Assembly: GCA_964344415.1 (NCBI GenBank)
Contig: CAYFMS010000001.1
Coordinates: 186,620 to 250,619, forward strand
DNA length: 64,000 nt
Source of the DNA: an uncultured Gammaproteobacteria bacterium
Lineage (GTDB): Bacteria; Patescibacteriota; Patescibacteriia; UBA9934
Direction of reading: 5' to 3'
Shown: in pieces, positions 4,188 to 55,643 of the stretch
Layout: each line of letters starts with the position of its first letter
Position numbering within the stretch: the stretch's first letter is position 1
Translations under genes and position numbers: made by a program
Notes under the pieces: model-generated
What the model saw: the letters and a program-made list of their open reading frames with translations, nothing else
Databases searched by the model: none
Told to the model about the DNA's origin: nothing

Positions 4188-5686
<1,499 letters not shown>

Positions 5687-35167: not shown

Positions 35168-35244
35168 GGGCCTGTAGCTCAGCTGGTTAGAGCGCAGAGC
35201 TTATACCTCTGTGGTCGATGGTTCGAGTCCATCCAGGCCCACCA
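35168..35244 (+). tRNA. tRNA-Ile (anticodon UAU, AUA-decoding), CCA encoded
   Basis: GGGCCTG TA GCTC-AGCTGGTTA-GAGC G CAGAG-CTTATAC-CTCTG TGGTC GATGG-TTCGAGT-CCATC CAGGCCC A CCA; perfect cloverleaf with anticodon loop CTTATAC. Confidence 0.85.
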
Positions 35245-45449: not shown

Positions 45450-46124
45450 ATGGTGCACATTGAAGATTCCTGGAAAGAGCAATTATCGGAGGAATTCTCA
45501 AAGTCATATTTTGCTGAGCTTACAGACTTTGTTCGCGGTGAATATCAGCAGAAACAGATCTTTCCACCGCCGAAACTTATTTTCAATGCTTTTGATTCCG
45601 TTGCATTTCAAGATGTAAAAGTCGTTATCTTGGGTCAAGATCCGTATCACGGTCCCGGACAAGCGCATGGGCTCTGTTTTTCCGTTCCTGATGGCATTCA
45701 AATGCCGCCATCGCTTCAAAATATATTCAAGGAAATACAAAATGACTTAGGTTTTGAAATACCGAAGTCCGGAAATTTACAGAATTGGGCTGATCAAGGA
45801 GTGCTTCTCTTGAATGCGACATTGACGGTTCAGGCACATAAAGCCGGATCGCATCAGAAAAAGGGATGGGAATTATTTACAAATGCCGCAATTAAAAAAT
45901 TAGCTGACGAAAGGGAGGGGATTGTTTTTATTCTTTGGGGTCGATATGCACGCGATAAAAAAGATCTTATTGATGCATCAAAGCATTTGATTTTAGAATC
46001 TGCGCATCCATCGCCATTATCGGCACATAAAGGATTCTTCGGATGTAAACATTTCAGTCAAACAAATGATTATTTGCTTTCAAAAATGAAATTACCAATT
46101 GTATGGGTAAAGGAGGAGGTGTGA
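45450..46124 (+). CDS. ung: uracil-DNA glycosylase (family 1)
   Basis: KVVILGQDPYHGPGQAHGLCFSV and HPSPLSA motifs. Confidence 0.9.
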   Translation: MVHIEDSWKEQLSEEFSKSYFAELTDFVRGEYQQKQIFPPPKLIFNAFDSVAFQDVKVVILGQDPYHGPGQAHGLCFSVPDGIQMPPSLQNIFKEIQNDLGFEIPKSGNLQNWADQGVLLLNATLTVQAHKAGSHQKKGWELFTNAAIKKLADEREGIVFILWGRYARDKKDLIDASKHLILESAHPSPLSAHKGFFGCKHFSQTNDYLLSKMKLPIVWVKEEV

Positions 46125-47449
46125 ACATTGCCGTTATCGGAGCGGGTATCGCGGGACTTACTTGCGCGTATGAGCTTCAAAAAATGGGTCATCATGTAGA
46201 GGTTTTTGAAAAAGAGTCATATGTCGGCGGCCGCATGTCGACAAGAACGAAACGGGGATTCCCTATGGATATCGGCGCGAATCATTTGGCGAATGTCTAT
46301 ACGCATATGCGGGGCTATGCAGAAGAATTTGGTATTCCATGGAAGCCGGTTGAGTTTTTGAACTACAATATTATTCACCGTGATCACGAGGATGATATCG
46401 ATATGAGTCATGCGGCACCTCTGCTAAAAGACCTATCTCTTCGAACAAAGCGGAAATTGGCATGGCGTTCTCTTTTAGATACGAGAAAACGAACGGATTT
46501 TTTCAATCTTTCAACGGCGGCTAAATTCGATACAGGGAATGCAAAAGAGTATGCGCTCAAAAAACTGACAAAAGAGGCTCATGATTATCTTGTTGATCCA
46601 TTTGTAAGCGTTTATCAATTTCACCGAGCAGATGAAATCAGCTTGGGAATTGTATATGCCATGATGCGCTCTCATTACAAAAATAAAAAAGAATGGGATT
46701 TGCATCATTTGGATGGGGGAATGATTGCCTTGCCGCAGGCGCTTGCAGATAGATTAACGGTGCATACATCTACACCTGTTGATTGGGTCAAGCGAGGCAA
46801 GAATAGTGCGAAGATTTCAGTGAATGGGGAAGAGTATGCGTTTGACGTCGTTATTATTGCAACAACTGCTGATATTGCGCATAGCATATACAAAAATCCG
46901 ACCAAGACAGAAGCAGAATTATTGAAAAAGACAGAGTATGCCGCGACCGTCGGGGTTGGTTTTGAAATTCCGGTTGATTTACTCGGCGATACGACAATTG
47001 TTTGGGTTCCATTTGTCGAAGGTGGGCGCATTTCTGGCTATACGAATGAAGCGATGAAGGGGAATCGCATGATAAAAAATAGAAAAACATTGCTTCTCAC
47101 TTGGTTCCATGAGGAGTTTGCAAAAACGATTATCGATAAAACAGATAAAGAGATTTTTGATATAGCGAAAACCGAGCTCATGAAAGTTTGTCCATATCTA
47201 TCATCAAAAAAACAGCTTAAGAATCATGATTTGCAGCGCTGGCCGGCGGCCATGCCGAAATTTAAACAGGGCCATTTAAAGCTCGCAAAAAAATACCAAG
47301 ATCAAATAGGGAAGACCTCGGTATTTCTTTGTGGAGACTATTTGAATGCACCATGGACGGAAGGCGCGCTTCGAAATGGTCAGGCAGTCGCTGCCTTGAT
47401 TGATCGCTCAACTAAATCCTCATCGCTTGCCGCTTCTTTTCCGGTATAA
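46103..47449 (+). CDS. FAD-dependent oxidoreductase, amine-oxidase/protoporphyrinogen-oxidase-like
   Basis: N-terminal NIAVIGAGIAGLTCAYEL dinucleotide fold. Confidence 0.7.
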   Translation: MGKGGGVNIAVIGAGIAGLTCAYELQKMGHHVEVFEKESYVGGRMSTRTKRGFPMDIGANHLANVYTHMRGYAEEFGIPWKPVEFLNYNIIHRDHEDDIDMSHAAPLLKDLSLRTKRKLAWRSLLDTRKRTDFFNLSTAAKFDTGNAKEYALKKLTKEAHDYLVDPFVSVYQFHRADEISLGIVYAMMRSHYKNKKEWDLHHLDGGMIALPQALADRLTVHTSTPVDWVKRGKNSAKISVNGEEYAFDVVIIATTADIAHSIYKNPTKTEAELLKKTEYAATVGVGFEIPVDLLGDTTIVWVPFVEGGRISGYTNEAMKGNRMIKNRKTLLLTWFHEEFAKTIIDKTDKEIFDIAKTELMKVCPYLSSKKQLKNHDLQRWPAAMPKFKQGHLKLAKKYQDQIGKTSVFLCGDYLNAPWTEGALRNGQAVAALIDRSTKSSSLAASFPV

Positions 47450-49044
47450 AACTCATCACCGGTTAAATCCATATATAATTGCATTCCTGTTGCGAGTGTT
47501 CCATGCATGCCGGCAGCTCCACTTGTTGCATTGCACCAGTGAAGATTCGCAAATCCCGTTTCGCGCTTGAGCTTTCCAAGCGACAAATGCGCTGGTGTTA
47601 AATTCGCGCCATATGCATTCCCTTGCGGTGCCATGGCATAGTCTTCAAATGTCGTTGGTGACCCGATTGTTTTCACGACAATGTGCTTGCGAATATCTGG
47701 AATATAATATTTTGCAACCAAATCAATTAATTTTTCCGCGTACTGCATTTTGAGTTTTGCATATTCTGCATAGCTGCGGTCCTGCGCATCCTTGAAGAGA
47801 TCATAATTAACAAAGCTCGCGACCTCCATAATTTCATAATTGTCCCCAGGTGTTGTTCCAGGGGCATTTGAATGTAGCGTTGGCGTCGACATGAAGAACC
47901 AAATATCACTGAAGCGATCGTCGAGATCCTTTTTATGCCAATTTTCATTCATGTCCCAGCTCTGTAAATGCCAAATATTGAACTTTCCAAAACCGAGCTT
48001 TTTCAAATCAATATCTTTCAATCCAAGATAAATCATAATCCCAGAAGGGGAGTATTCATATGATAATTTCTTCTGCATTTCGGGTGAGAACTTCTCCCAT
48101 CCGATCAGATTCTTCGCCGCTTTTTGAGGATCGGCATTACAAATATACTCATTCGCATTAAAGCTCTTTCCATCTTTTGTTGTGACCTCTGTTACGCGGC
48201 CAAATTCCGTTTTGATTTTCTCAACAGGGGTTTCATAATAAATATGACAACCGTCTTTGCTGACAATAAAATCCGCAAGCGACTGAATATAATGCTTATA
48301 ATGTTTTGTTGGATAGTAAGCGCCAGTGTTGTACCCGGACATGAGCCCAACGAATGCAAAAATCGATAATTCATCGGGCGGGGCACCAAAATCACCTGCA
48401 TTTCCACCGAAAACGGCCTGTACTTCTTTTGAAAGTTTGCATTCCTCAAAAACGTTCTGCAATGTTGCTTTGCGATACTTCAAGAGAGTCAAAAATTGAG
48501 GCCATTTGATTAATTTCTCCCACCATTTAATCGGACGAATTGGCAATTTCTTCATTTCGCTCCGAATCTTTTTCATCAATTGAACAAAATTGTTGATCGA
48601 TTCTTTTTGGTCGGGGTAATGACTTGCAATACTTTCAGCGAGGCGATCGAATCCATAAGGAAATTTCACGCGTTTACCATCTGGAAGCACAATATGGTCA
48701 TATCCATCGGGATCATAAAGCTCGAAAGAAATATCTTGTTCAATGCCGAGTTTATTCAGGAAAACATTGAATTTCTCACCAGGGCCGCAACCCCAAATAT
48801 AATGAACTTGCGCGCAGAAATGGAATTCTCCTTGGCGGAATGTGTGGGCGTAACCTCCGGGTGTATCGTGCGCTTCTAGCATGCAAACCTTTTTACCAGC
48901 ATTTGCGAGAAGAGCGGCGCAGGATAGGGCGCTATGCCCCGTCCCGATAAAAACGTAATCATATTCATGCCCCTCTTCGTATCGCTTATTTTGCGCTTGC
49001 TTTTGTTCATCCGTAAGCGCACCTGTCGATGATTTTATTGCCAT
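47380..49044 (-). CDS. FAD-dependent oxidoreductase, phytoene-desaturase (CrtI)-like family
   Basis: YDYVFIGTGHSALSCAALLANAGKKVCMLEAHDTPGG; converges on the previous gene with a 70-bp overlap. Confidence 0.7.
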   Translation of the reverse strand: MAIKSSTGALTDEQKQAQNKRYEEGHEYDYVFIGTGHSALSCAALLANAGKKVCMLEAHDTPGGYAHTFRQGEFHFCAQVHYIWGCGPGEKFNVFLNKLGIEQDISFELYDPDGYDHIVLPDGKRVKFPYGFDRLAESIASHYPDQKESINNFVQLMKKIRSEMKKLPIRPIKWWEKLIKWPQFLTLLKYRKATLQNVFEECKLSKEVQAVFGGNAGDFGAPPDELSIFAFVGLMSGYNTGAYYPTKHYKHYIQSLADFIVSKDGCHIYYETPVEKIKTEFGRVTEVTTKDGKSFNANEYICNADPQKAAKNLIGWEKFSPEMQKKLSYEYSPSGIMIYLGLKDIDLKKLGFGKFNIWHLQSWDMNENWHKKDLDDRFSDIWFFMSTPTLHSNAPGTTPGDNYEIMEVASFVNYDLFKDAQDRSYAEYAKLKMQYAEKLIDLVAKYYIPDIRKHIVVKTIGSPTTFEDYAMAPQGNAYGANLTPAHLSLGKLKRETGFANLHWCNATSGAAGMHGTLATGMQLYMDLTGDEFYTGKEAASDEDLVERSIKAATA

Positions 49045-49112
49045 ATAATGAGAAGTTTAGCATAAAAAAACCACCGTCGCCTACAGATGTAGATTACGAT
49101 GATTGAAGTGTG

Positions 49113-49355
49113 TCACATCATTTTGAATACAAGTTCGATGAATACTCTCTTGAGTTCTTCGTCACTCTTGTATCCATAGATCCGATTTAGCCGATCGTGT
49201 TCACCTTCGATCGTTGCTCTGAAATCAATCAGAACTTGATCGGAGCTGACTTGATTGGCTTCTTGGTCGGTCTTGGAAAGCTCTCGAAGCCTTGCCACGC
49301 AATACTCGGTGGCAAAGCGGACGAGAACATGGGTCTCTTCCTGCGTCCAGCTCAC
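49113..49355 (-). CDS. hypothetical protein (80 aa), first gene of the high-GC segment
   Basis: ORF in GC-rich DNA; weak. Confidence 0.35.
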   Translation of the reverse strand: MSWTQEETHVLVRFATEYCVARLRELSKTDQEANQVSSDQVLIDFRATIEGEHDRLNRIYGYKSDEELKRVFIELVFKMM

Positions 49356-49364
49356 GCCGCCTCC

Positions 49365-49904
49365 TTACTTGGCTGCATTTGGATATTGTTCGAGATGGCT
49401 GTCCTCGTCGAGCAATTTGTATGCATACGCGATTGCCGCATCTGCGATTTGCTCGCGAGTTGTTTGACCGCCCAAGAGGTCATTGAACTCTTTGGGCATA
49501 GGCCCCATGTCTTTTGTTTTTTGGTACAAATTACGCGCAGCAATCGTGATGGAGTCCACGAGTGCATTGTGGGCCGCGCGTCTTGCTCGGTCCACGCGCT
49601 CCATTTCTCGGCGATCTGATTCGCCGACATGTACGCCTTTCATGTAATTTGACTGTTCATTGAATCTCATGCGAGATCCAAGATACGCCATCGCTTTTTC
49701 GTGGACCTGATCGACCAGCCGTTTGTACTTGTCGTACTCGGATTTGTCGATTTCTTCCAGTCTTTCCTCGAGATGATCGAGGAAACGGGACATTTTCGTG
49801 TCGTACATTCGCCCTTCTCCTCGTTCATTTTCTTCACGTCTCTCTTCTGATCCAGAGTAGAAATGTCCGTGAAGATGTTCTGGTACTTTGTGTCGTCCTT
49901 CCAT
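49365..49904 (-). CDS. hypothetical protein (179 aa, charged, helical)
   Basis: ORF 10 bp upstream of the 80-aa ORF on the same strand. Confidence 0.45.
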   Translation of the reverse strand: MEGRHKVPEHLHGHFYSGSEERREENERGEGRMYDTKMSRFLDHLEERLEEIDKSEYDKYKRLVDQVHEKAMAYLGSRMRFNEQSNYMKGVHVGESDRREMERVDRARRAAHNALVDSITIAARNLYQKTKDMGPMPKEFNDLLGGQTTREQIADAAIAYAYKLLDEDSHLEQYPNAAK

Positions 49905-50019
49905 AGAAGGTGGATTAAATTAGCAGTTTTTTAAGTTATTGTCAATGGTAGCATGCATGAAAGAATCAAAAAAACCGTCCCTCAAGCACCACCGGAGTGG
50001 GTCGGGGACGATCAGTAGC

Positions 50020-51084
50020 TTACTTCGTCATCTGCCAGCGCAGCATGTTGCCTGCGCGGAACGGTACAACACTTCCAATCTGTTCAGGCACCACCCAGGA
50101 TTTGCGTGTGAGGGTGATGGTTTCCTTGTTCAGTGGAAGATTGTAGAATTCGGCTCCGAAGCGCGAGCAGAAATCGTCGAGACGATTGATCGAATCTGCG
50201 TCTTCGAAGATTTCGGCGAGTACCTGTGGGAGTACGGGTGCAGAATAGACTCCGCATGCTCCCTTGGCGCATTCTTTCCTGTCGCGTACATGTGGCGCTG
50301 TGTCAGATCCAAGGAAGAACTTCGAGCTACCAGAGGTGGCAGCGTCAATAAGTGCATCCCGGTCTGTGAAATCCTTCGGCATTGGCATGCAACCGTTGTG
50401 AGGTCGAATGCCATAGCCGATCACATCATTCAGCGTGAGCTGAAGGTGATGCGCCGTGATCGTCGCTGCTACATTCTCACCAAGCTGCAAAACCGTGTCG
50501 GCTGCTGCTTTGGTGGAGATGTGCTCGAGCACAATCTTGAGATCCGGGAAGGATTCGGCCAATCGAAGGAGAGTAGGGAGGAAGACTTCCTCGCGACGTG
50601 TCACGAGTACACGATCGTGATCGATCTCGCCATGGATCAGCAGAAGCATTCCGATGTCCCGCATAGCCCGAAAGGTCTCGGTGATTTCGGGGGCGAAAAA
50701 GTCTCGCAGGCCTTCATCAGAGTTGGTTGTCACGCCTGCAGGGTAGATTTTCCCAGCAACTGCGCCAGCTTGATGGGCTGAGACGACCATTTCCGGTGTT
50801 GTATTGTCCCGGATGTCGATCGTCATCAGAGGCTTGAAGTTCGGTCGTTCCGTCATTCCATCGAGCACATGCTCGATTTCACCCCGATACCACTCCACAT
50901 CTTTTGCTTCCAAGATTGCGCGTGGTCGAGTGTTTGGCATTGCCAGACCTCGGCCAGCGTAATGCGCCGTCCATGGAAGCACTTCCTTCAGCATATCGCC
51001 GGTACGGAAGTGGCAATGAAGATCGTCGAGTTTCCGCAAGACGATCTTCGTCAAAGCATTGCTTGATTCTTGTGATGTCATCAC
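50020..51084 (-). CDS. pyrC: dihydroorotase, class II (E. coli PyrC type)
   Basis: Matches E. coli PyrC across its length (e.g. LDDLHCHFRTGDMLK..., LHLLIHGE..., FLGSDTAPHVRDRKE...) as recalled from memory. Confidence 0.85.
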   Translation of the reverse strand: MMTSQESSNALTKIVLRKLDDLHCHFRTGDMLKEVLPWTAHYAGRGLAMPNTRPRAILEAKDVEWYRGEIEHVLDGMTERPNFKPLMTIDIRDNTTPEMVVSAHQAGAVAGKIYPAGVTTNSDEGLRDFFAPEITETFRAMRDIGMLLLIHGEIDHDRVLVTRREEVFLPTLLRLAESFPDLKIVLEHISTKAAADTVLQLGENVAATITAHHLQLTLNDVIGYGIRPHNGCMPMPKDFTDRDALIDAATSGSSKFFLGSDTAPHVRDRKECAKGACGVYSAPVLPQVLAEIFEDADSINRLDDFCSRFGAEFYNLPLNKETITLTRKSWVVPEQIGSVVPFRAGNMLRWQMTK

Positions 51085-52034
51085 TTCTCCCAGTTGAGAC
51101 GTTGTGCCTCGTTGATGATTGAACGCAAGCGCCAGGGGCGCAGCGTGGATACAGATCCGATGAACACCGAAGAAGCTCCTGCCCGATGATAGTGAGTCAC
51201 GTCATCTGCAGCAAGAATTCCGCCGCCGCCATTGATCGGTTTTTGAAATCCGGCTTCTCTCAATCGAGTGATCCAGTTGCAGACAATCGGACGCAAAATA
51301 GCGCCAGAGATGCCGCCACCACCATACTTGGCGAGTGGTGATGTGTCGGTACCCCATACCTGCTCCCAATCGATCATAGGATCGCCGAACTTGATGGTGT
51401 TCGAAACACAGATAGCATCGCAGGCCGCGTGCTGATCAAGTTCCAATACTGCCTCCACTGGTGCATTGGCAGCGAATTTTGGCATCACTGGCACATTGAG
51501 TGCTTGTGCGATGTCAAGAACTTGTTCGGATTCACCAATGAGTTCACGTGGATCATGGCCTGTATTTGGGCAGGAGAGATTGATCTGCAGCCCAAACGGT
51601 GCACGAAAATTAGGCTTGCACTGTCCAATGAGATCGATCATGGCCCGCAGTTCATCGAGTCGTTCATTCGAAGACTCTGCCACGGACATAATCGAAAGCA
51701 GGAAGGGTTCAGTGCGATTCTGCCAGATCCCAGCGTCCAGAAGAGTCTGAAGTCCTGGTCCGCTCAAGCCGACTGCATTGAGCATCATGCCACGCCATGG
51801 GGCGATCGAAACACAGTCCGGGAAGCGATGCTTGGGCGTGTGATGATCGGTCAGCACCATATTCCCGTCACGCGGGTGCAGTGTTGTTGTTTTCGACACG
51901 AATGCCGAACCGTTGAAGTCAAATCCGCCAAATAGACGTTTGAAGTACCAATGTTGCCAGTAGCCTTCACCGCCGAATCCACGAACGCCTGCTGCATCCA
52001 GCACAGAGCCAAATTCAATACCTCGCAATTTCAT
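51081..52034 (-). CDS. pyrD: dihydroorotate dehydrogenase-like (class 1 DHOD/DHPD TIM-barrel family)
   Basis: GMMLNAVGLSGPG, INLSCPNT, GGGISGAILRP and INGGGGI motifs; coupled to pyrC (ATGA). Confidence 0.7.
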   Translation of the reverse strand: MKLRGIEFGSVLDAAGVRGFGGEGYWQHWYFKRLFGGFDFNGSAFVSKTTTLHPRDGNMVLTDHHTPKHRFPDCVSIAPWRGMMLNAVGLSGPGLQTLLDAGIWQNRTEPFLLSIMSVAESSNERLDELRAMIDLIGQCKPNFRAPFGLQINLSCPNTGHDPRELIGESEQVLDIAQALNVPVMPKFAANAPVEAVLELDQHAACDAICVSNTIKFGDPMIDWEQVWGTDTSPLAKYGGGGISGAILRPIVCNWITRLREAGFQKPINGGGGILAADDVTHYHRAGASSVFIGSVSTLRPWRLRSIINEAQRLNWEK

Positions 52035-52465
52035 GCGTTACTCCTTTGAATGGTTTGTTGAGTTGTTTAAGAACACGGGAACCAATGACACGCTATCAGA
52101 AGACTCATGTGCGCACAAGTGATATACGTGAACCCATGCATGTTGCCATCCTAGATTTAAATAGAACAAAAAAACCGCAGATTTCTCTACGGTCGCGATT
52201 TGGTCACCTGATTCGTGAAGGCATTTTCGTCAATGCCTAATCTTCGGTAGCGGTTGTATTGACACTTTCAAAAAAATAAGTTACTCTTTGCCCACAAATA
52301 AGCCTTCTCTTTACACATTTTGTGTGCGAGAGAAATGGTGTTAAGTCTTCCGAGTACATGGAAAGATTTGAGCAGTGACGAAGCGTACTGAAATGTACGG
52401 TGAGGAGCGGCGCAGAATCTTGACGCAGTAATCGATAGACTTGGGCACTATTTCTGTAAGAAAAA

Positions 52466-52540
52466 GGCCCCATCGTCTAGTGGTTAGGACGCCAGGTTTT
52501 CATCCTGGAAATCGGGGTTCGATTCCCCGTGGGGTCACCA
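52466..52540 (+). tRNA. tRNA-Glu (anticodon UUC), CCA encoded
   Basis: GGCCCCATCGTCTAGTGGTTAGGACGCCAGG-TTTTCAT-CCTGGAAATCGGGGTTCGATTCCCCGTGGGGTCACCA. Confidence 0.9.
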
Positions 52541-52698: not shown

Positions 52699-52719
52699 CG
52701 ATTCCCCGTGGGGTCACCA
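52699..52719 (+). repeat. direct duplicate of the tRNA-Glu 3' end (att-like remnant)
   Basis: CGATTCCCCGTGGGGTCACCA is identical to 52520-52540, 160 bp downstream. Confidence 0.6.
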
Positions 52720-52838
52720 CGAAAAAAGTTCAGCTTCTGCTGGGCTTTTTTCGTTATGATCTCCATGGAGGGATTGAAGTCCGTTTACAAAATAAAACGC
52801 CCCTCTGAAAAGAGGGGCTCGTGGCGCTGGCTTGTCGT

Positions 52839-53489
52839 CTACGTGACGACATCCGAGAGTTGGATATAGCAGCGTCTTGGGTTCCAGTTGTTTTCATTTC
52901 CATCCCACGGTGATGCGATGGATAGGCGAATGGTGCAGTTTTCGTATACGAATCTTCCTCGATGCCGAGCGCGGAGCTCAGTTCCGACAATGCTTACACC
53001 GCTCAGCACATGACCCGTTTGGTCAATGATGCTCGCACGTCTACTGTGGCCATCAATGATCACTTTACTGTGACGCACATATCCAACGGATCGTGGTAGC
53101 GGTTGCTCGGGAATGTAGCGATCAGTGAACACCATGTCGGGGTACAAATCGAGGATCGAATCATACGAAAAGGCTTCAACGACCTCTTCGCGCATCTTTT
53201 GCACTAATCTCCGCCCCGGTAGTTTTAGGGACTGGGGATTGATGCGTAGGTCTTCCGGATGTGTCGGCCTTGGGCATCCATCGATCAGTTCGCGAATATC
53301 CACGCGAGCGCCGAAATTCCATTTGGCACGAATCTCTTTTTCAGTGAGCGATGTTTCATCATATTGCATGGAGTACCCATGTTGATTCATCAGCCGATAC
53401 TGACGCCAAACACCGCGCACTTGTCTTGCGACGCAGGTACAGAATCGGCCGCCACTCATTTCCGTTCTTGAAAGCACATATGCGCGCAT
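52839..53489 (-). CDS. hypothetical protein (216 aa), coupled downstream partner of the DUF488 gene
   Basis: ORF whose ATG overlaps the DUF488 stop; His/Arg-rich block VIIDGHSRRASIIDQTGHVLSGVSIVGTELRARHRGRF; high GC. Confidence 0.5.
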   Translation of the reverse strand: MRAYVLSRTEMSGGRFCTCVARQVRGVWRQYRLMNQHGYSMQYDETSLTEKEIRAKWNFGARVDIRELIDGCPRPTHPEDLRINPQSLKLPGRRLVQKMREEVVEAFSYDSILDLYPDMVFTDRYIPEQPLPRSVGYVRHSKVIIDGHSRRASIIDQTGHVLSGVSIVGTELRARHRGRFVYENCTIRLSIASPWDGNENNWNPRRCYIQLSDVVT

Positions 53490-54181
53490 CAGGACCTCCA
53501 GCCGCGAGGGGGAGATGCTTTGATATTGGCTCCTGGGATTGGTTCTACCAGGTACCTTCTCGGAGATTTGCGCGACGGTTTCGACCCACCGACTTCCTCG
53601 GGCGAGAGATGAGCTTCATCGACTCCGTGAACCCACTTGCTGATCAATCCGGTCGCCACATGTCTATGGCAATCCAAATGATGCTGGCAAGCGCACATAA
53701 TGGCGATGCCCGTATGAGGACCGTCAATCAGTGTTCGAAGAGGATTCCCTTCGCGCAGAACACGATTCTCTTTTGCAATCATTGCCATGTACTGCTTCAG
53801 GAATGCTGTCCAGGCATGCGCTCGGTCTTCTTGCGTGCTCGGCGTTTTTGGGCTCAGCACTTTGTGCAGATCTGTGCGCATCGACTGTGTCGGTGCGAGT
53901 TCCAGCATGTGCACATAGGGCACATCATGCAATTCGCACATGTACTCGAGGTCTTCTGCGAATGCGAAACGTGCTCTTCCATAGGATCGGCTTCTGCGCG
54001 TGTCAACGAGCAGCGGGTTGCCATGCTTTTTCAGCAGGGCGAAGAAGTTCCGTGCACTCATGCCGCAGCTGATCGAAAAGATGTTTTTCAGATGAGGTAC
54101 GCGTATTTGCGAAACCTCTTCCGTTGTTTTTGTGAAAAGATCGGGTTGGTCACTCATGTATCCTCCAATGATTGGTGACAA
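53489..54181 (-). CDS. DUF488-family protein
   Basis: IFSISCGMSARNFFALLKKHGNPLLVDTRRSRSYGRARFAFAEDLEYMCELHDVPYVHMLELAP and the C-terminal CACQHHLDCHRHVATGLI (CHR motif) fit the PF04343 pattern as recalled. Confidence 0.6.
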   Translation of the reverse strand: MSPIIGGYMSDQPDLFTKTTEEVSQIRVPHLKNIFSISCGMSARNFFALLKKHGNPLLVDTRRSRSYGRARFAFAEDLEYMCELHDVPYVHMLELAPTQSMRTDLHKVLSPKTPSTQEDRAHAWTAFLKQYMAMIAKENRVLREGNPLRTLIDGPHTGIAIMCACQHHLDCHRHVATGLISKWVHGVDEAHLSPEEVGGSKPSRKSPRRYLVEPIPGANIKASPPRGWRS

Positions 54182-54285
54182 TGCAAACTAACGTTTTGTG
54201 ATGTGATTGTCAATAGCCCAGCATTGACAAAAGAGCATATTTTTGATCTAATGACATGCACACATTGTGATAAAAGGAGGCTACA

Positions 54286-55071
54286 TTGTGTCGAATTATT
54301 CTTAAAAAAAGTGATTTGATTTTCGGAGAAACCGAAATTGAATCCGCATTTACATTTGCTGAAGAGAATGCGAATGACCTAGCGAATCTGATCAGCGTGT
54401 ATGACTACCATGCCTTGGCCGATCTGCATGTGCCGAATATCATTCGAAAAGCGCATGCACAGTTTCAATATGAGATTCATAGATCGCTCGCTATCGCGGT
54501 CACCCTGCTTCTTGCTTCGGGACTGAGTATGGATAAACGAGCGAAGGATGCATGGACTCCATTCCACTGCATGATTCTTGCACAGCAGAAGATGGTGGAA
54601 GCGATACTTAATCTCAGTGAGCATGATTTGAAATGCTTCTTACGTGTATTTCCAAAGTCCGACCTTACTAAGACGGCTTGGAAAAAGCTGATTGGTGGGT
54701 GCATTACGGTTACAAAGATCGTTCATGCACTGATCGAAAAGCATGAGATGCAAGTGGAATTCCCAACGCCTCAAGAGGATGGGAAGTATCAGATTGACCT
54801 TTTTGTCAGGCTGGACAAAAAGAGATTGATCGCGATGCAAATCAAATCTACATCGCAAAATTACATTGACGTTTTGCGGTATGGTGATCGATACTCCGAT
54901 TCAGCTCTTCGAGAATTCTTGAAACGAGCTGAGATCTTCCAAGAGGTCAACAGGCATGTGGTTATCTATCCAGTTTTTTTTACGGCTGCGAGAAATAACC
55001 GACAGTGGGAATTGCATGACCCGGTCATTGTTAACATGCTTGGGCGAATGTTTGGGCAGATCAAGAACTAG
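54286..55071 (+). CDS. hypothetical protein (261 aa), possible PD-(D/E)xK-like nuclease fold
   Basis: The D...QxK arrangement (QIDLFVRLDKKRLIAMQIKS) is suggestive only; high GC. Confidence 0.45.
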   Translation: MCRIILKKSDLIFGETEIESAFTFAEENANDLANLISVYDYHALADLHVPNIIRKAHAQFQYEIHRSLAIAVTLLLASGLSMDKRAKDAWTPFHCMILAQQKMVEAILNLSEHDLKCFLRVFPKSDLTKTAWKKLIGGCITVTKIVHALIEKHEMQVEFPTPQEDGKYQIDLFVRLDKKRLIAMQIKSTSQNYIDVLRYGDRYSDSALREFLKRAEIFQEVNRHVVIYPVFFTAARNNRQWELHDPVIVNMLGRMFGQIKN

Positions 55072-55172
55072 TAACGCTTGTGTAAACGGGCGTTTTTTTA
55101 TTTAGGGTAATTGGTAACTTTGCGACCAATGCGGCATATCCGATATTAGTTGGATTGACAAAAAGGTGATTT

Positions 55173-55643
55173 TTGTGTATGATTCGGCGCAATCGTCAAC
55201 GGCGTTTGGCGATATTTGGAGGGGAATTGAACAAAAAATTGGTTCACATTGGCTGGGCATTCAGCGCCTTTGCCGTCATTGGCACCATCCTGCTTACCGC
55301 GGGCTGTGATCCGGTCGAATATGGCCCGACATCGCTCGAGATGCAGGAACTGTCATTCACTGTCTCGCATGACGTGTCGCTGACAGTGGAATTCGACGGC
55401 GGTACGAGCGTACACAAGTTCATCGCAGGTTCTGCTGGATTTCACGCGCTCCACCGAGGTGCATTCGATGTCGTGATTTGCGGCGAACCGTCCGACATCG
55501 ACCATGTCTGCGAACTGAGCGGACTGGAAGTGAACGAAGCGTCCTTGCCGCGAGACATCGCGAATGTCGACGGCATGGCATGCATTTCGATCGCGTCGGG
55601 AACGGCGGTCGAATCACAAGTGAATTTGGCGCGGTGCAACTGA
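55173..55643 (+). CDS. putative lipoprotein
   Basis: Signal peptide ending in the lipobox LLTAGC; high GC; strong terminator follows. Confidence 0.5.
   Translation: MCMIRRNRQRRLAIFGGELNKKLVHIGWAFSAFAVIGTILLTAGCDPVEYGPTSLEMQELSFTVSHDVSLTVEFDGGTSVHKFIAGSAGFHALHRGAFDVVICGEPSDIDHVCELSGLEVNEASLPRDIANVDGMACISIASGTAVESQVNLARCN

Follow-up and report, generated by a model that had tools for sequence, protein, structure and literature searches.

What do the DUF488 gene and its overlapping partner at positions 52839-54157 (reverse strand) of this DNA do, and do they belong to an acquired defence cassette? The window, the whole stretch that we analysed, is 64,000 nucleotides (nt) long and comes from a metagenomic contig of 768 kb. 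A sequence-only reading had grouped the two genes with a divergent open reading frame (ORF) of 261 amino acids (aa), here called ORF C, as a horizontally acquired defence or DNA-modification module lying in a putative island next to an att-like repeat. We found instead that the DUF488 gene and its partner form an operon by themselves. On balance, we favour the view that this operon is related to the three-gene DuOB/DUF488/DUF488-N3a system, the PADLOC candidate PDC-M45, of which it would be a reduced and diverged form, and that it acts as a two-subunit nucleic-acid enzyme. The features of the operon are the following.

53489..54157, reverse strand: DUF488-N3a-type gene, 222 aa from the ATG at 54157; predicted catalytic subunit.
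53489-54181, reverse strand: the DUF488 ORF as listed, with TTG 54181 as an alternative start that would give 230 aa.
54161..54166, reverse strand: ribosome-binding site GGAGGA, 4 nt 5' of ATG 54157, read from the sequence.
53487..53499, reverse strand: coupling junction, with GGAGG at 53499-53495, the DUF488 stop TGA at 53491-53489 and the DuOB start ATG at 53489-53487.
52839..53489, reverse strand: DuOB-family gene, 216 aa, with a tandem OB fold; predicted nucleic-acid-binding partner.
52799..52818, reverse strand: terminator-like intrinsic hairpin and T-run, 21 nt after the DuOB stop; end of the operon.

The stop codon of DUF488 and the start codon of the 216-aa ORF overlap in the letters TGATG, with GGAGG just 5' of them. 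Each of the two starts has one Shine-Dalgarno site, and a single terminator follows DuOB. Thus, DUF488 and DuOB form a two-gene, translationally coupled operon, and the coupling that had been proposed from the overlap is borne out. The DUF488 protein is likely to begin at ATG 54157, because GGAGGA precedes this codon and the public gene call of 222 aa starts there as well; TTG 54181 is less favoured. A 275-aa ORF runs antisense to the DUF488 gene (53351-54178, forward strand). It was rejected as a gene: its BLAST matches in relatives only mirror the conserved DUF488 sequence, which makes it a shadow ORF.

The first protein of the operon is a DUF488 protein with a conserved C-H-R motif, as had been proposed. 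It matches the Pfam family DUF488 (PF04343) at 45.9 bits (E 1.1e-11; gathering cut-off 22.2), and residues F38, D52, R54, P89, C155, C163, H164 and R165 are invariant in 18 DUF488 relatives. Both the D-x-R and the C...C-H-R motifs of DUF488 are kept in the window protein. Against the Pfam family DUF488-N3a (PF22751, 'active DUF488-N3 subclade') it scores 26.7 bits, where the cut-off is 27. PF22751 is listed in the precomputed annotation of an identical protein and is marked weak in the gene call annotation; the orthologue in the syntenic locus L004 matches DUF488-N3a without the weak mark. Among PADLOC models, the best match is PDC-M45C (2.4e-13), compared with 4e-5 for PDC-M45B. The motif of the subclade reads C-A-C-x-H-H-x-D-C-H-R, and in it a cysteine replaces the canonical glutamate two residues after the first cysteine. 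Compared with a canonical DUF488 of 146 aa, the window protein is extended at its N terminus, holds an internal insert and ends in a C-terminal tail that carries an SPRR motif; it is ~75 residues longer.

The 216-aa partner had been described as a protein with no recognisable family, and this description has to be given up. As modelled, it is a basic member of the DuOB family with a predicted tandem-OB fold. The protein itself matches Pfam DuOB (PF22557, 'Dual OB-containing domain') at 20.6 bits (E 5e-4) over profile positions 64-210. A word-indexed search of 5.8 billion proteins returned only seven relatives; of these seven closest homologues, four match DuOB (best 2.8e-10). When the homologues were turned into a profile, it recovered canonical DuOB proteins, for example P0091 and P0093. 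When a profile was searched against 1.84 billion representatives of 50%-identity clusters, only 107 family members were found at E<=1e-3; the DuOB family is therefore rare. Scans of genomes and metagenomes with a seven-sequence alignment gave only 7 and 2 loci, respectively, and an alignment of 57 DuOB sequences was too diverse for pattern-based locus scans.

An AlphaFold2 model of DuOB, made from an alignment of homologues, had a mean confidence score (pLDDT) of 88.3, a predicted template-modelling score (pTM) of 0.84 and a mostly beta-strand structure. When this model was compared with the PDB by Foldseek, the HIN-200 domains of AIM2, IFI16 and p202 came first (probability ~1.0), followed by Teb1 and RPA70. 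The top matches are tandem-OB nucleic-acid binders. Like DuOB, HIN-200 and the A and B DNA-binding domains of RPA70 place two consecutive OB folds in one nucleic-acid-binding unit. They differ from it in lacking its conserved polar residues and an enzyme partner, and identities of 8-13% and template-modelling (TM) scores of ~0.35-0.4 mark this as structural resemblance, not family membership. Against viral models, Foldseek gave weak matches to LEF-3 and SSB only. No relative of solved structure was detectable by sequence for either DUF488 or DuOB. The partner had also been called His/Arg-rich; the arginine part of this is right (12.5%), the histidine part is not (2.8%). Each of the two window proteins has a net charge of +7, and some members of the DuOB family carry a C-terminal HRDC or glyoxalase domain.

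Nine residues of DuOB (C17, R32, H77, E79, D80, S134, G136, R188 and C207) are each kept in 74-80 of the 81 members that were aligned, among which are canonical DuOBs. The order of the strands appears to place C17, R32, H77, E79 and D80 on that face of the first OB fold which binds ligand. To judge from the alignment, this pattern resembles an active site, or a pocket for a metal or ligand, more than it does a generic binding surface. It suggests that the 'binding' subunit may do more than bind.

Is the pairing of the two genes conserved? It was found in all of the further non-redundant loci that we surveyed: DUF488 lies directly upstream of DuOB in 14 of 14. Twelve of these were reached via DuOB (the P0003 locus, L001, L004, L007, L010, L011, L012/L023, L014, L015, L016, L017 and L019) and two via DUF488 (L024 and L025), and both partners were checked at each locus by Pfam or by our own hidden Markov models (HMMs). 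The two genes overlap by 1-4 nt in seven related loci, and DuOB stands beside a DUF488-N3a gene in every locus examined, plasmid loci included. Thus, the co-occurrence that the sequence-only reading had raised is that of a conserved pair. The window DUF488 is 52-53% identical to copies from Candidatus Uhrbacteria and 36-40% identical to those of the syntenic loci L004 and L010; DuOB shows the opposite trend. One protein of 415 aa (P0049; L015 1416-2663) appeared to be a DUF488-DuOB fusion. It was rejected as such: an in-frame TGA had been read as tryptophan, and with the standard bacterial code the locus holds two adjacent in-frame genes. This artefact cautions against fusion-based (Rosetta-stone) inference from metagenome gene calls.

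Among the closest known counterparts of the operon is the pair of Pfam families PF22751 and PF22557. These names reportedly trace to Burroughs and Aravind in 2023. The window locus shares with that pair an adjacent DUF488-N3a-type gene and tandem-OB DuOB gene, and the conserved residues of both are kept. It departs from the canonical form in that its proteins score at or just below the cut-offs, its order is DUF488 then DuOB, and its DUF488 is the long version with cysteine in place of glutamate. This long two-gene variant is restricted to Patescibacteria-like genomes. DUF488-N3a and DuOB are already catalogued in Pfam and as a PADLOC candidate; what is new here is a divergent two-gene variant, not a new kind of system.

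In distant relatives (L016 and L017) we found three-gene cassettes of DUF488, DUF488-N3a and DuOB. Their proteins match PDC-M45B at 6e-46 and 1.8e-52 and PDC-M45C at 1e-56 and 1e-54, and one of the two DuOBs, that of L017, matches M45A weakly (0.0029). These cassettes were found with the profile of the window DuOB. The window DUF488 shares the M45C match with them. The full set of PDC-M45 is absent from the window, which has only M45C: there is no second DUF488 gene, and DuOB has no M45A match at E<=0.1. The window locus also differs from PDC-M45 in lying neither within nor next to a known defence system.

A second group of relatives is carried by small plasmids of Enterobacteriaceae, Acinetobacter and Moraxella. 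These triads resemble the window pair in that DuOB is accompanied by one DUF488-N3a and a second DUF488 paralogue is lacking; they differ in their third gene (mSLOG-DUF4326), their plasmid location, their reversed gene order and their short 146-aa DUF488. Of the annotated plasmid records, 19 hold canonical DuOB and 135 hold DUF488-N3a. The canonical plasmid DuOB matches Pfam at 1.7e-57 and is labelled 'hypothetical protein' in RefSeq; the window DuOB had no match among plasmids. Two of the cassettes, ordered DuOB, DUF488-N3a and mSLOG-DUF4326, lie on Acinetobacter and Citrobacter plasmids of 10-23 kb (L027 4361-6049 and L030 4992-6655), where they adjoin partition and CcdAB genes. DuOB matches were also seen on small Salmonella, Klebsiella and Moraxella plasmids. 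Most of the remaining plasmid matches to DUF488-N3a come from Enterobacteriaceae.

Based on these results, we propose the following model for the operon. DUF488 and DuOB would form a complex, in which DuOB would hold the substrate, either DNA or RNA. The DUF488 subunit may then carry out cysteine-dependent phosphoryl chemistry through its conserved cysteine, histidine and arginine. Its target could be a terminal phosphate or a sugar-phosphate, which would make the enzyme one of end or lesion processing. Two observations link the pair to nucleic acid, namely the DuOB-HRDC fusions in relatives and the positive charge of both window proteins.

Several points weigh against this model. The arrangement of the genes is the sole pointer to complex formation, and the apparent fusion P0049, which counts as adjacency alone, adds no support. 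The 20.6 bits of the window DuOB lie under the Pfam cut-off of 27, and the protein has no PADLOC match. The Foldseek TM-scores of the DuOB model are low (0.35-0.41). The conserved residues of DuOB could form a catalytic or metal site, in which case the roles of the subunits may have been wrongly assigned. No family member has a biochemically assayed activity, and our literature search found no reported function for DUF488, DuOB or PDC-M45. The catalytic chemistry of DUF488 is, reportedly, that put forward by Burroughs and Aravind in 2023. For work on such points, the two-gene minimal form with its clear operon offers a compact construct for biochemistry.

What would such an enzyme be for? The contexts of the family on plasmids and in defence islands favour a part in conflicts with mobile elements. 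Genome maintenance in a Patescibacteria-like lineage is favoured by the stable place of the window pair in the chromosome, together with recurrent DNA-repair neighbours. Stable chromosomal residence near Ung or Vsr bears on the question of repair versus defence.

It is possible, if rather unlikely in our judgement, that the pair has a housekeeping role in reduced genomes as an accessory to DNA repair, and cleans blocked ends such as 3'-phosphates after base excision or nicking. The neighbours of the pair speak for this. Ung follows the pair at once or at a short distance downstream in L004, L010 and L007, and in the window it stands on the same flank. In the Candidatus Uhrbacteria loci (L001 4597-7365, and L011) an operon on one strand holds a 221-aa Vsr+GIY-YIG fusion endonuclease, DUF488, DuOB and a 199-aa CYTH protein. 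In L025 the genes around the pair encode a methyltransferase, an RNase-H-like exonuclease and a Metallophos protein. A solitary 143-aa DUF488-N3a is carried by IncC and IncP plasmids (L026 3158-6432 and L029 6001-8784), where it stands beside UvrA or UvrB paralogues and the formaldehyde-detoxification genes frmR, fghA and formaldehyde dehydrogenase. The chromosomal position is also stable across relatives. However, adjacency may arise by chance in compact genomes, and the contexts vary by lineage; in L024 it is carotenoid genes that adjoin the pair. Moreover, the family is too rare for a general repair function, and its canonical relatives lie in defence islands. In two further loci, L012 and L023, the Vsr+GIY-YIG gene alone lies 5' of the pair, and in L012 a small rhodanese gene precedes DUF488.

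We are more doubtful that the pair is devoted to defence against phages or plasmids, as a minimal PDC-M45 that senses or damages invading nucleic acid by altering its ends. In support of this, the canonical relatives match PDC-M45, which belongs to a set of 145 candidates without experimental testing, derived by 'guilt by embedding' from genes that lie inside BREX, DISARM and type I restriction-modification loci (Payne et al., bioRxiv 10.1101/2024.01.29.577857). One canonical cassette lies inside a type III CRISPR-Cas locus on plasmid pAt1 of Allochromatium tepidum, and another beside CBASS and TcmP on an Agrobacterium plasmid. The rarity of the family, with 107 representatives in 1.84 billion, would also suit a defence role. 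Furthermore, the pair is more diverged between syntenic genomes than Band_7 and Ung (36-40% versus 62-73% identity). This argument from a fast-evolving pair is weak, because AI-2E has diverged about equally. PDC-M45 is itself only a candidate. The window has no M45B-type gene, and its DuOB has no M45A match. Here and in syntenic relatives, the neighbours are housekeeping genes (Band_7, TsaD/E, Smr, Ung and AI-2E) rather than defence genes. Canonical DuOB had no match among phage records, and no relative was found in the phage records or viral contigs scanned. Two matches in the viral-contig scan were rejected; they were a 112-aa helix-turn-helix protein with a chance 'PRRTHPEDLR'. In sum, of the role in defence or DNA modification that the sequence-only reading had assigned, a link to nucleic acid and conflict is reasonable for the family, given canonical PDC-M45, the plasmids, type III CRISPR-Cas and CBASS; the acquired cassette is not.

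A more elaborate proposal, which we regard as improbable, is that DuOB holds a second catalytic or metal centre and that the two-gene form is a domesticated chromosomal enzyme for the repair of DNA ends or lesions, derived from a plasmid-borne conflict system. If this were true, the domesticated pair would supply end-cleaning functions that are otherwise missing from reduced genomes.

Having favoured a two-gene, two-subunit enzyme, we now turn to the third gene that had been joined to it. Two features are concerned.

54286..55071, forward strand: ORF C, 261 aa; lineage-specific and outside the conserved module.
55073..55094, forward strand: terminator-like hairpin directly after ORF C.

As ORF C has its own terminator, it is a separate transcription unit. 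A search of 5.8 billion proteins for homologues of ORF C returned only itself, and the gene is absent from every other DUF488-DuOB locus examined. Compared with the closest relative, L007, it lies inside a clean indel of ~957 bp (54193-55149), in place of which L007 has 26 bp: L007 7101-7230 aligns with window 55279-55150, and L007 7257-7401 with window 54192-54053. ORF C is an unrelated local insertion, and both it and the tRNA repeat described below are outside the module.

A restriction-endonuclease-like fold had been suggested for ORF C from a D...QxK arrangement. The arrangement is there (D171...Q185-I-K187); the fold is not established, and we regard a nuclease fold as possible. Like the PD-(D/E)xK proteins of the DUF4365/Mrr type, ORF C has a D...Q-x-K motif, a weak HMM match over residues 145-195 and a predicted helix-strand-strand-strand-helix-strand order. 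It differs from them in that the match of its C-terminal half to DUF4365 (17.1-18.9 bits, E 0.0016-0.0058) falls under the cut-off of 24.3, and in that its N-terminal half is unrelated, with at most a faint ankyrin-like signal. A single-sequence AlphaFold2 model of ORF C had a pLDDT of 35.5 and was unusable. The ankyrin signal was rejected: it reached 9.7e-7 against PDB sequences with no single stretch passing, and Pfam gave it no backing.

Was the locus acquired as an island? The features on which this idea turned are two.

52466..52540, forward strand: tRNA-Glu(UUC), convergent with the operon.
52699..52719, forward strand: att-like exact 21-nt copy of the tRNA-Glu 3' end, whose original is at 52520-52540.

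The att-like repeat is real. The 21-nt sequence occurs in two copies only, offset by 179 nt, where 0 chance matches are expected. The 158 nt that the repeat encloses contain no ORF and no Rfam match. The repeats flank none of the three genes, and no integrase was among the genes called within +/-10 kb. The repeat may be what an integrated element, now gone, has left behind. A hairpin follows the repeat copy at 52714-52759.

The base composition of the pair might be read as another sign of transfer, as its GC content is 0.52 compared with 0.44 for the window. The two-gene loci of relatives show a GC excess of the pair as well: it was present in all eight that were measured, ranged from 0.7 to 13 points and tracks the GC of the host. 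Because the excess recurs in relatives and tracks host GC, it is not a sign of recent transfer. The flanking genes are also common to relatives: identities are 73% for Band_7 (L004 and L010), 62-79% for Ung and 43-52% for AI-2E. What differs from genome to genome is the stretch between DuOB and Ung, which here includes a GC-rich block described below; the pair itself is constant. These results do not fit a horizontally acquired cassette in an island; the pair seems to be a function long established in the chromosome, at a syntenic position of small-genome, Patescibacteria-like bacteria.

We can therefore be brief about a single acquired defence cassette of DUF488, its partner and a divergent PD-(D/E)xK protein at an att site: in spite of the adjacent, divergent ORF C with its motif and weak DUF4365 match, the real repeat and the GC offset, this proposal is largely refuted and very improbable, given the absence of ORF C from all other loci, its separate terminator, the short span of the repeat, the want of an integrase call, and a GC offset and flanking synteny that are shared with relatives.

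Some further observations concern the surroundings of the operon. Beyond ORF C, a 156-aa ORF (55173-55643, forward strand; GC 0.55) has no family match and is 64% identical in L007. It has a near-consensus promoter, TTGACA-17-TATGAT, at 55155-55183, and in L007 it is divergent and lies directly beside DUF488. On the other side, between DuOB/tRNA-Glu and Ung, a block with a GC of ~0.53 (~46100-52040) encodes a pyrC dihydroorotase (TIGR00856, 1e-97), a DHODH-like protein and two amine-oxidase-like proteins. The block is absent from the same interval in L004, L007 and L010, and it may be acquired metabolic cargo.

Finally, the window holds a complete 16S rRNA gene (4189-5685, reverse strand) and no 23S rRNA gene; the 16S is 69-71% identical to that of E. 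coli. Judging by the sequences, the 'uncultured Gammaproteobacteria' titles of the closest relatives are very likely wrong, and a Patescibacteria-like origin fits better. A tRNA-Ile with the anticodon TAT, which is uncommon in bacteria, is found at 35168-35244 on the forward strand.

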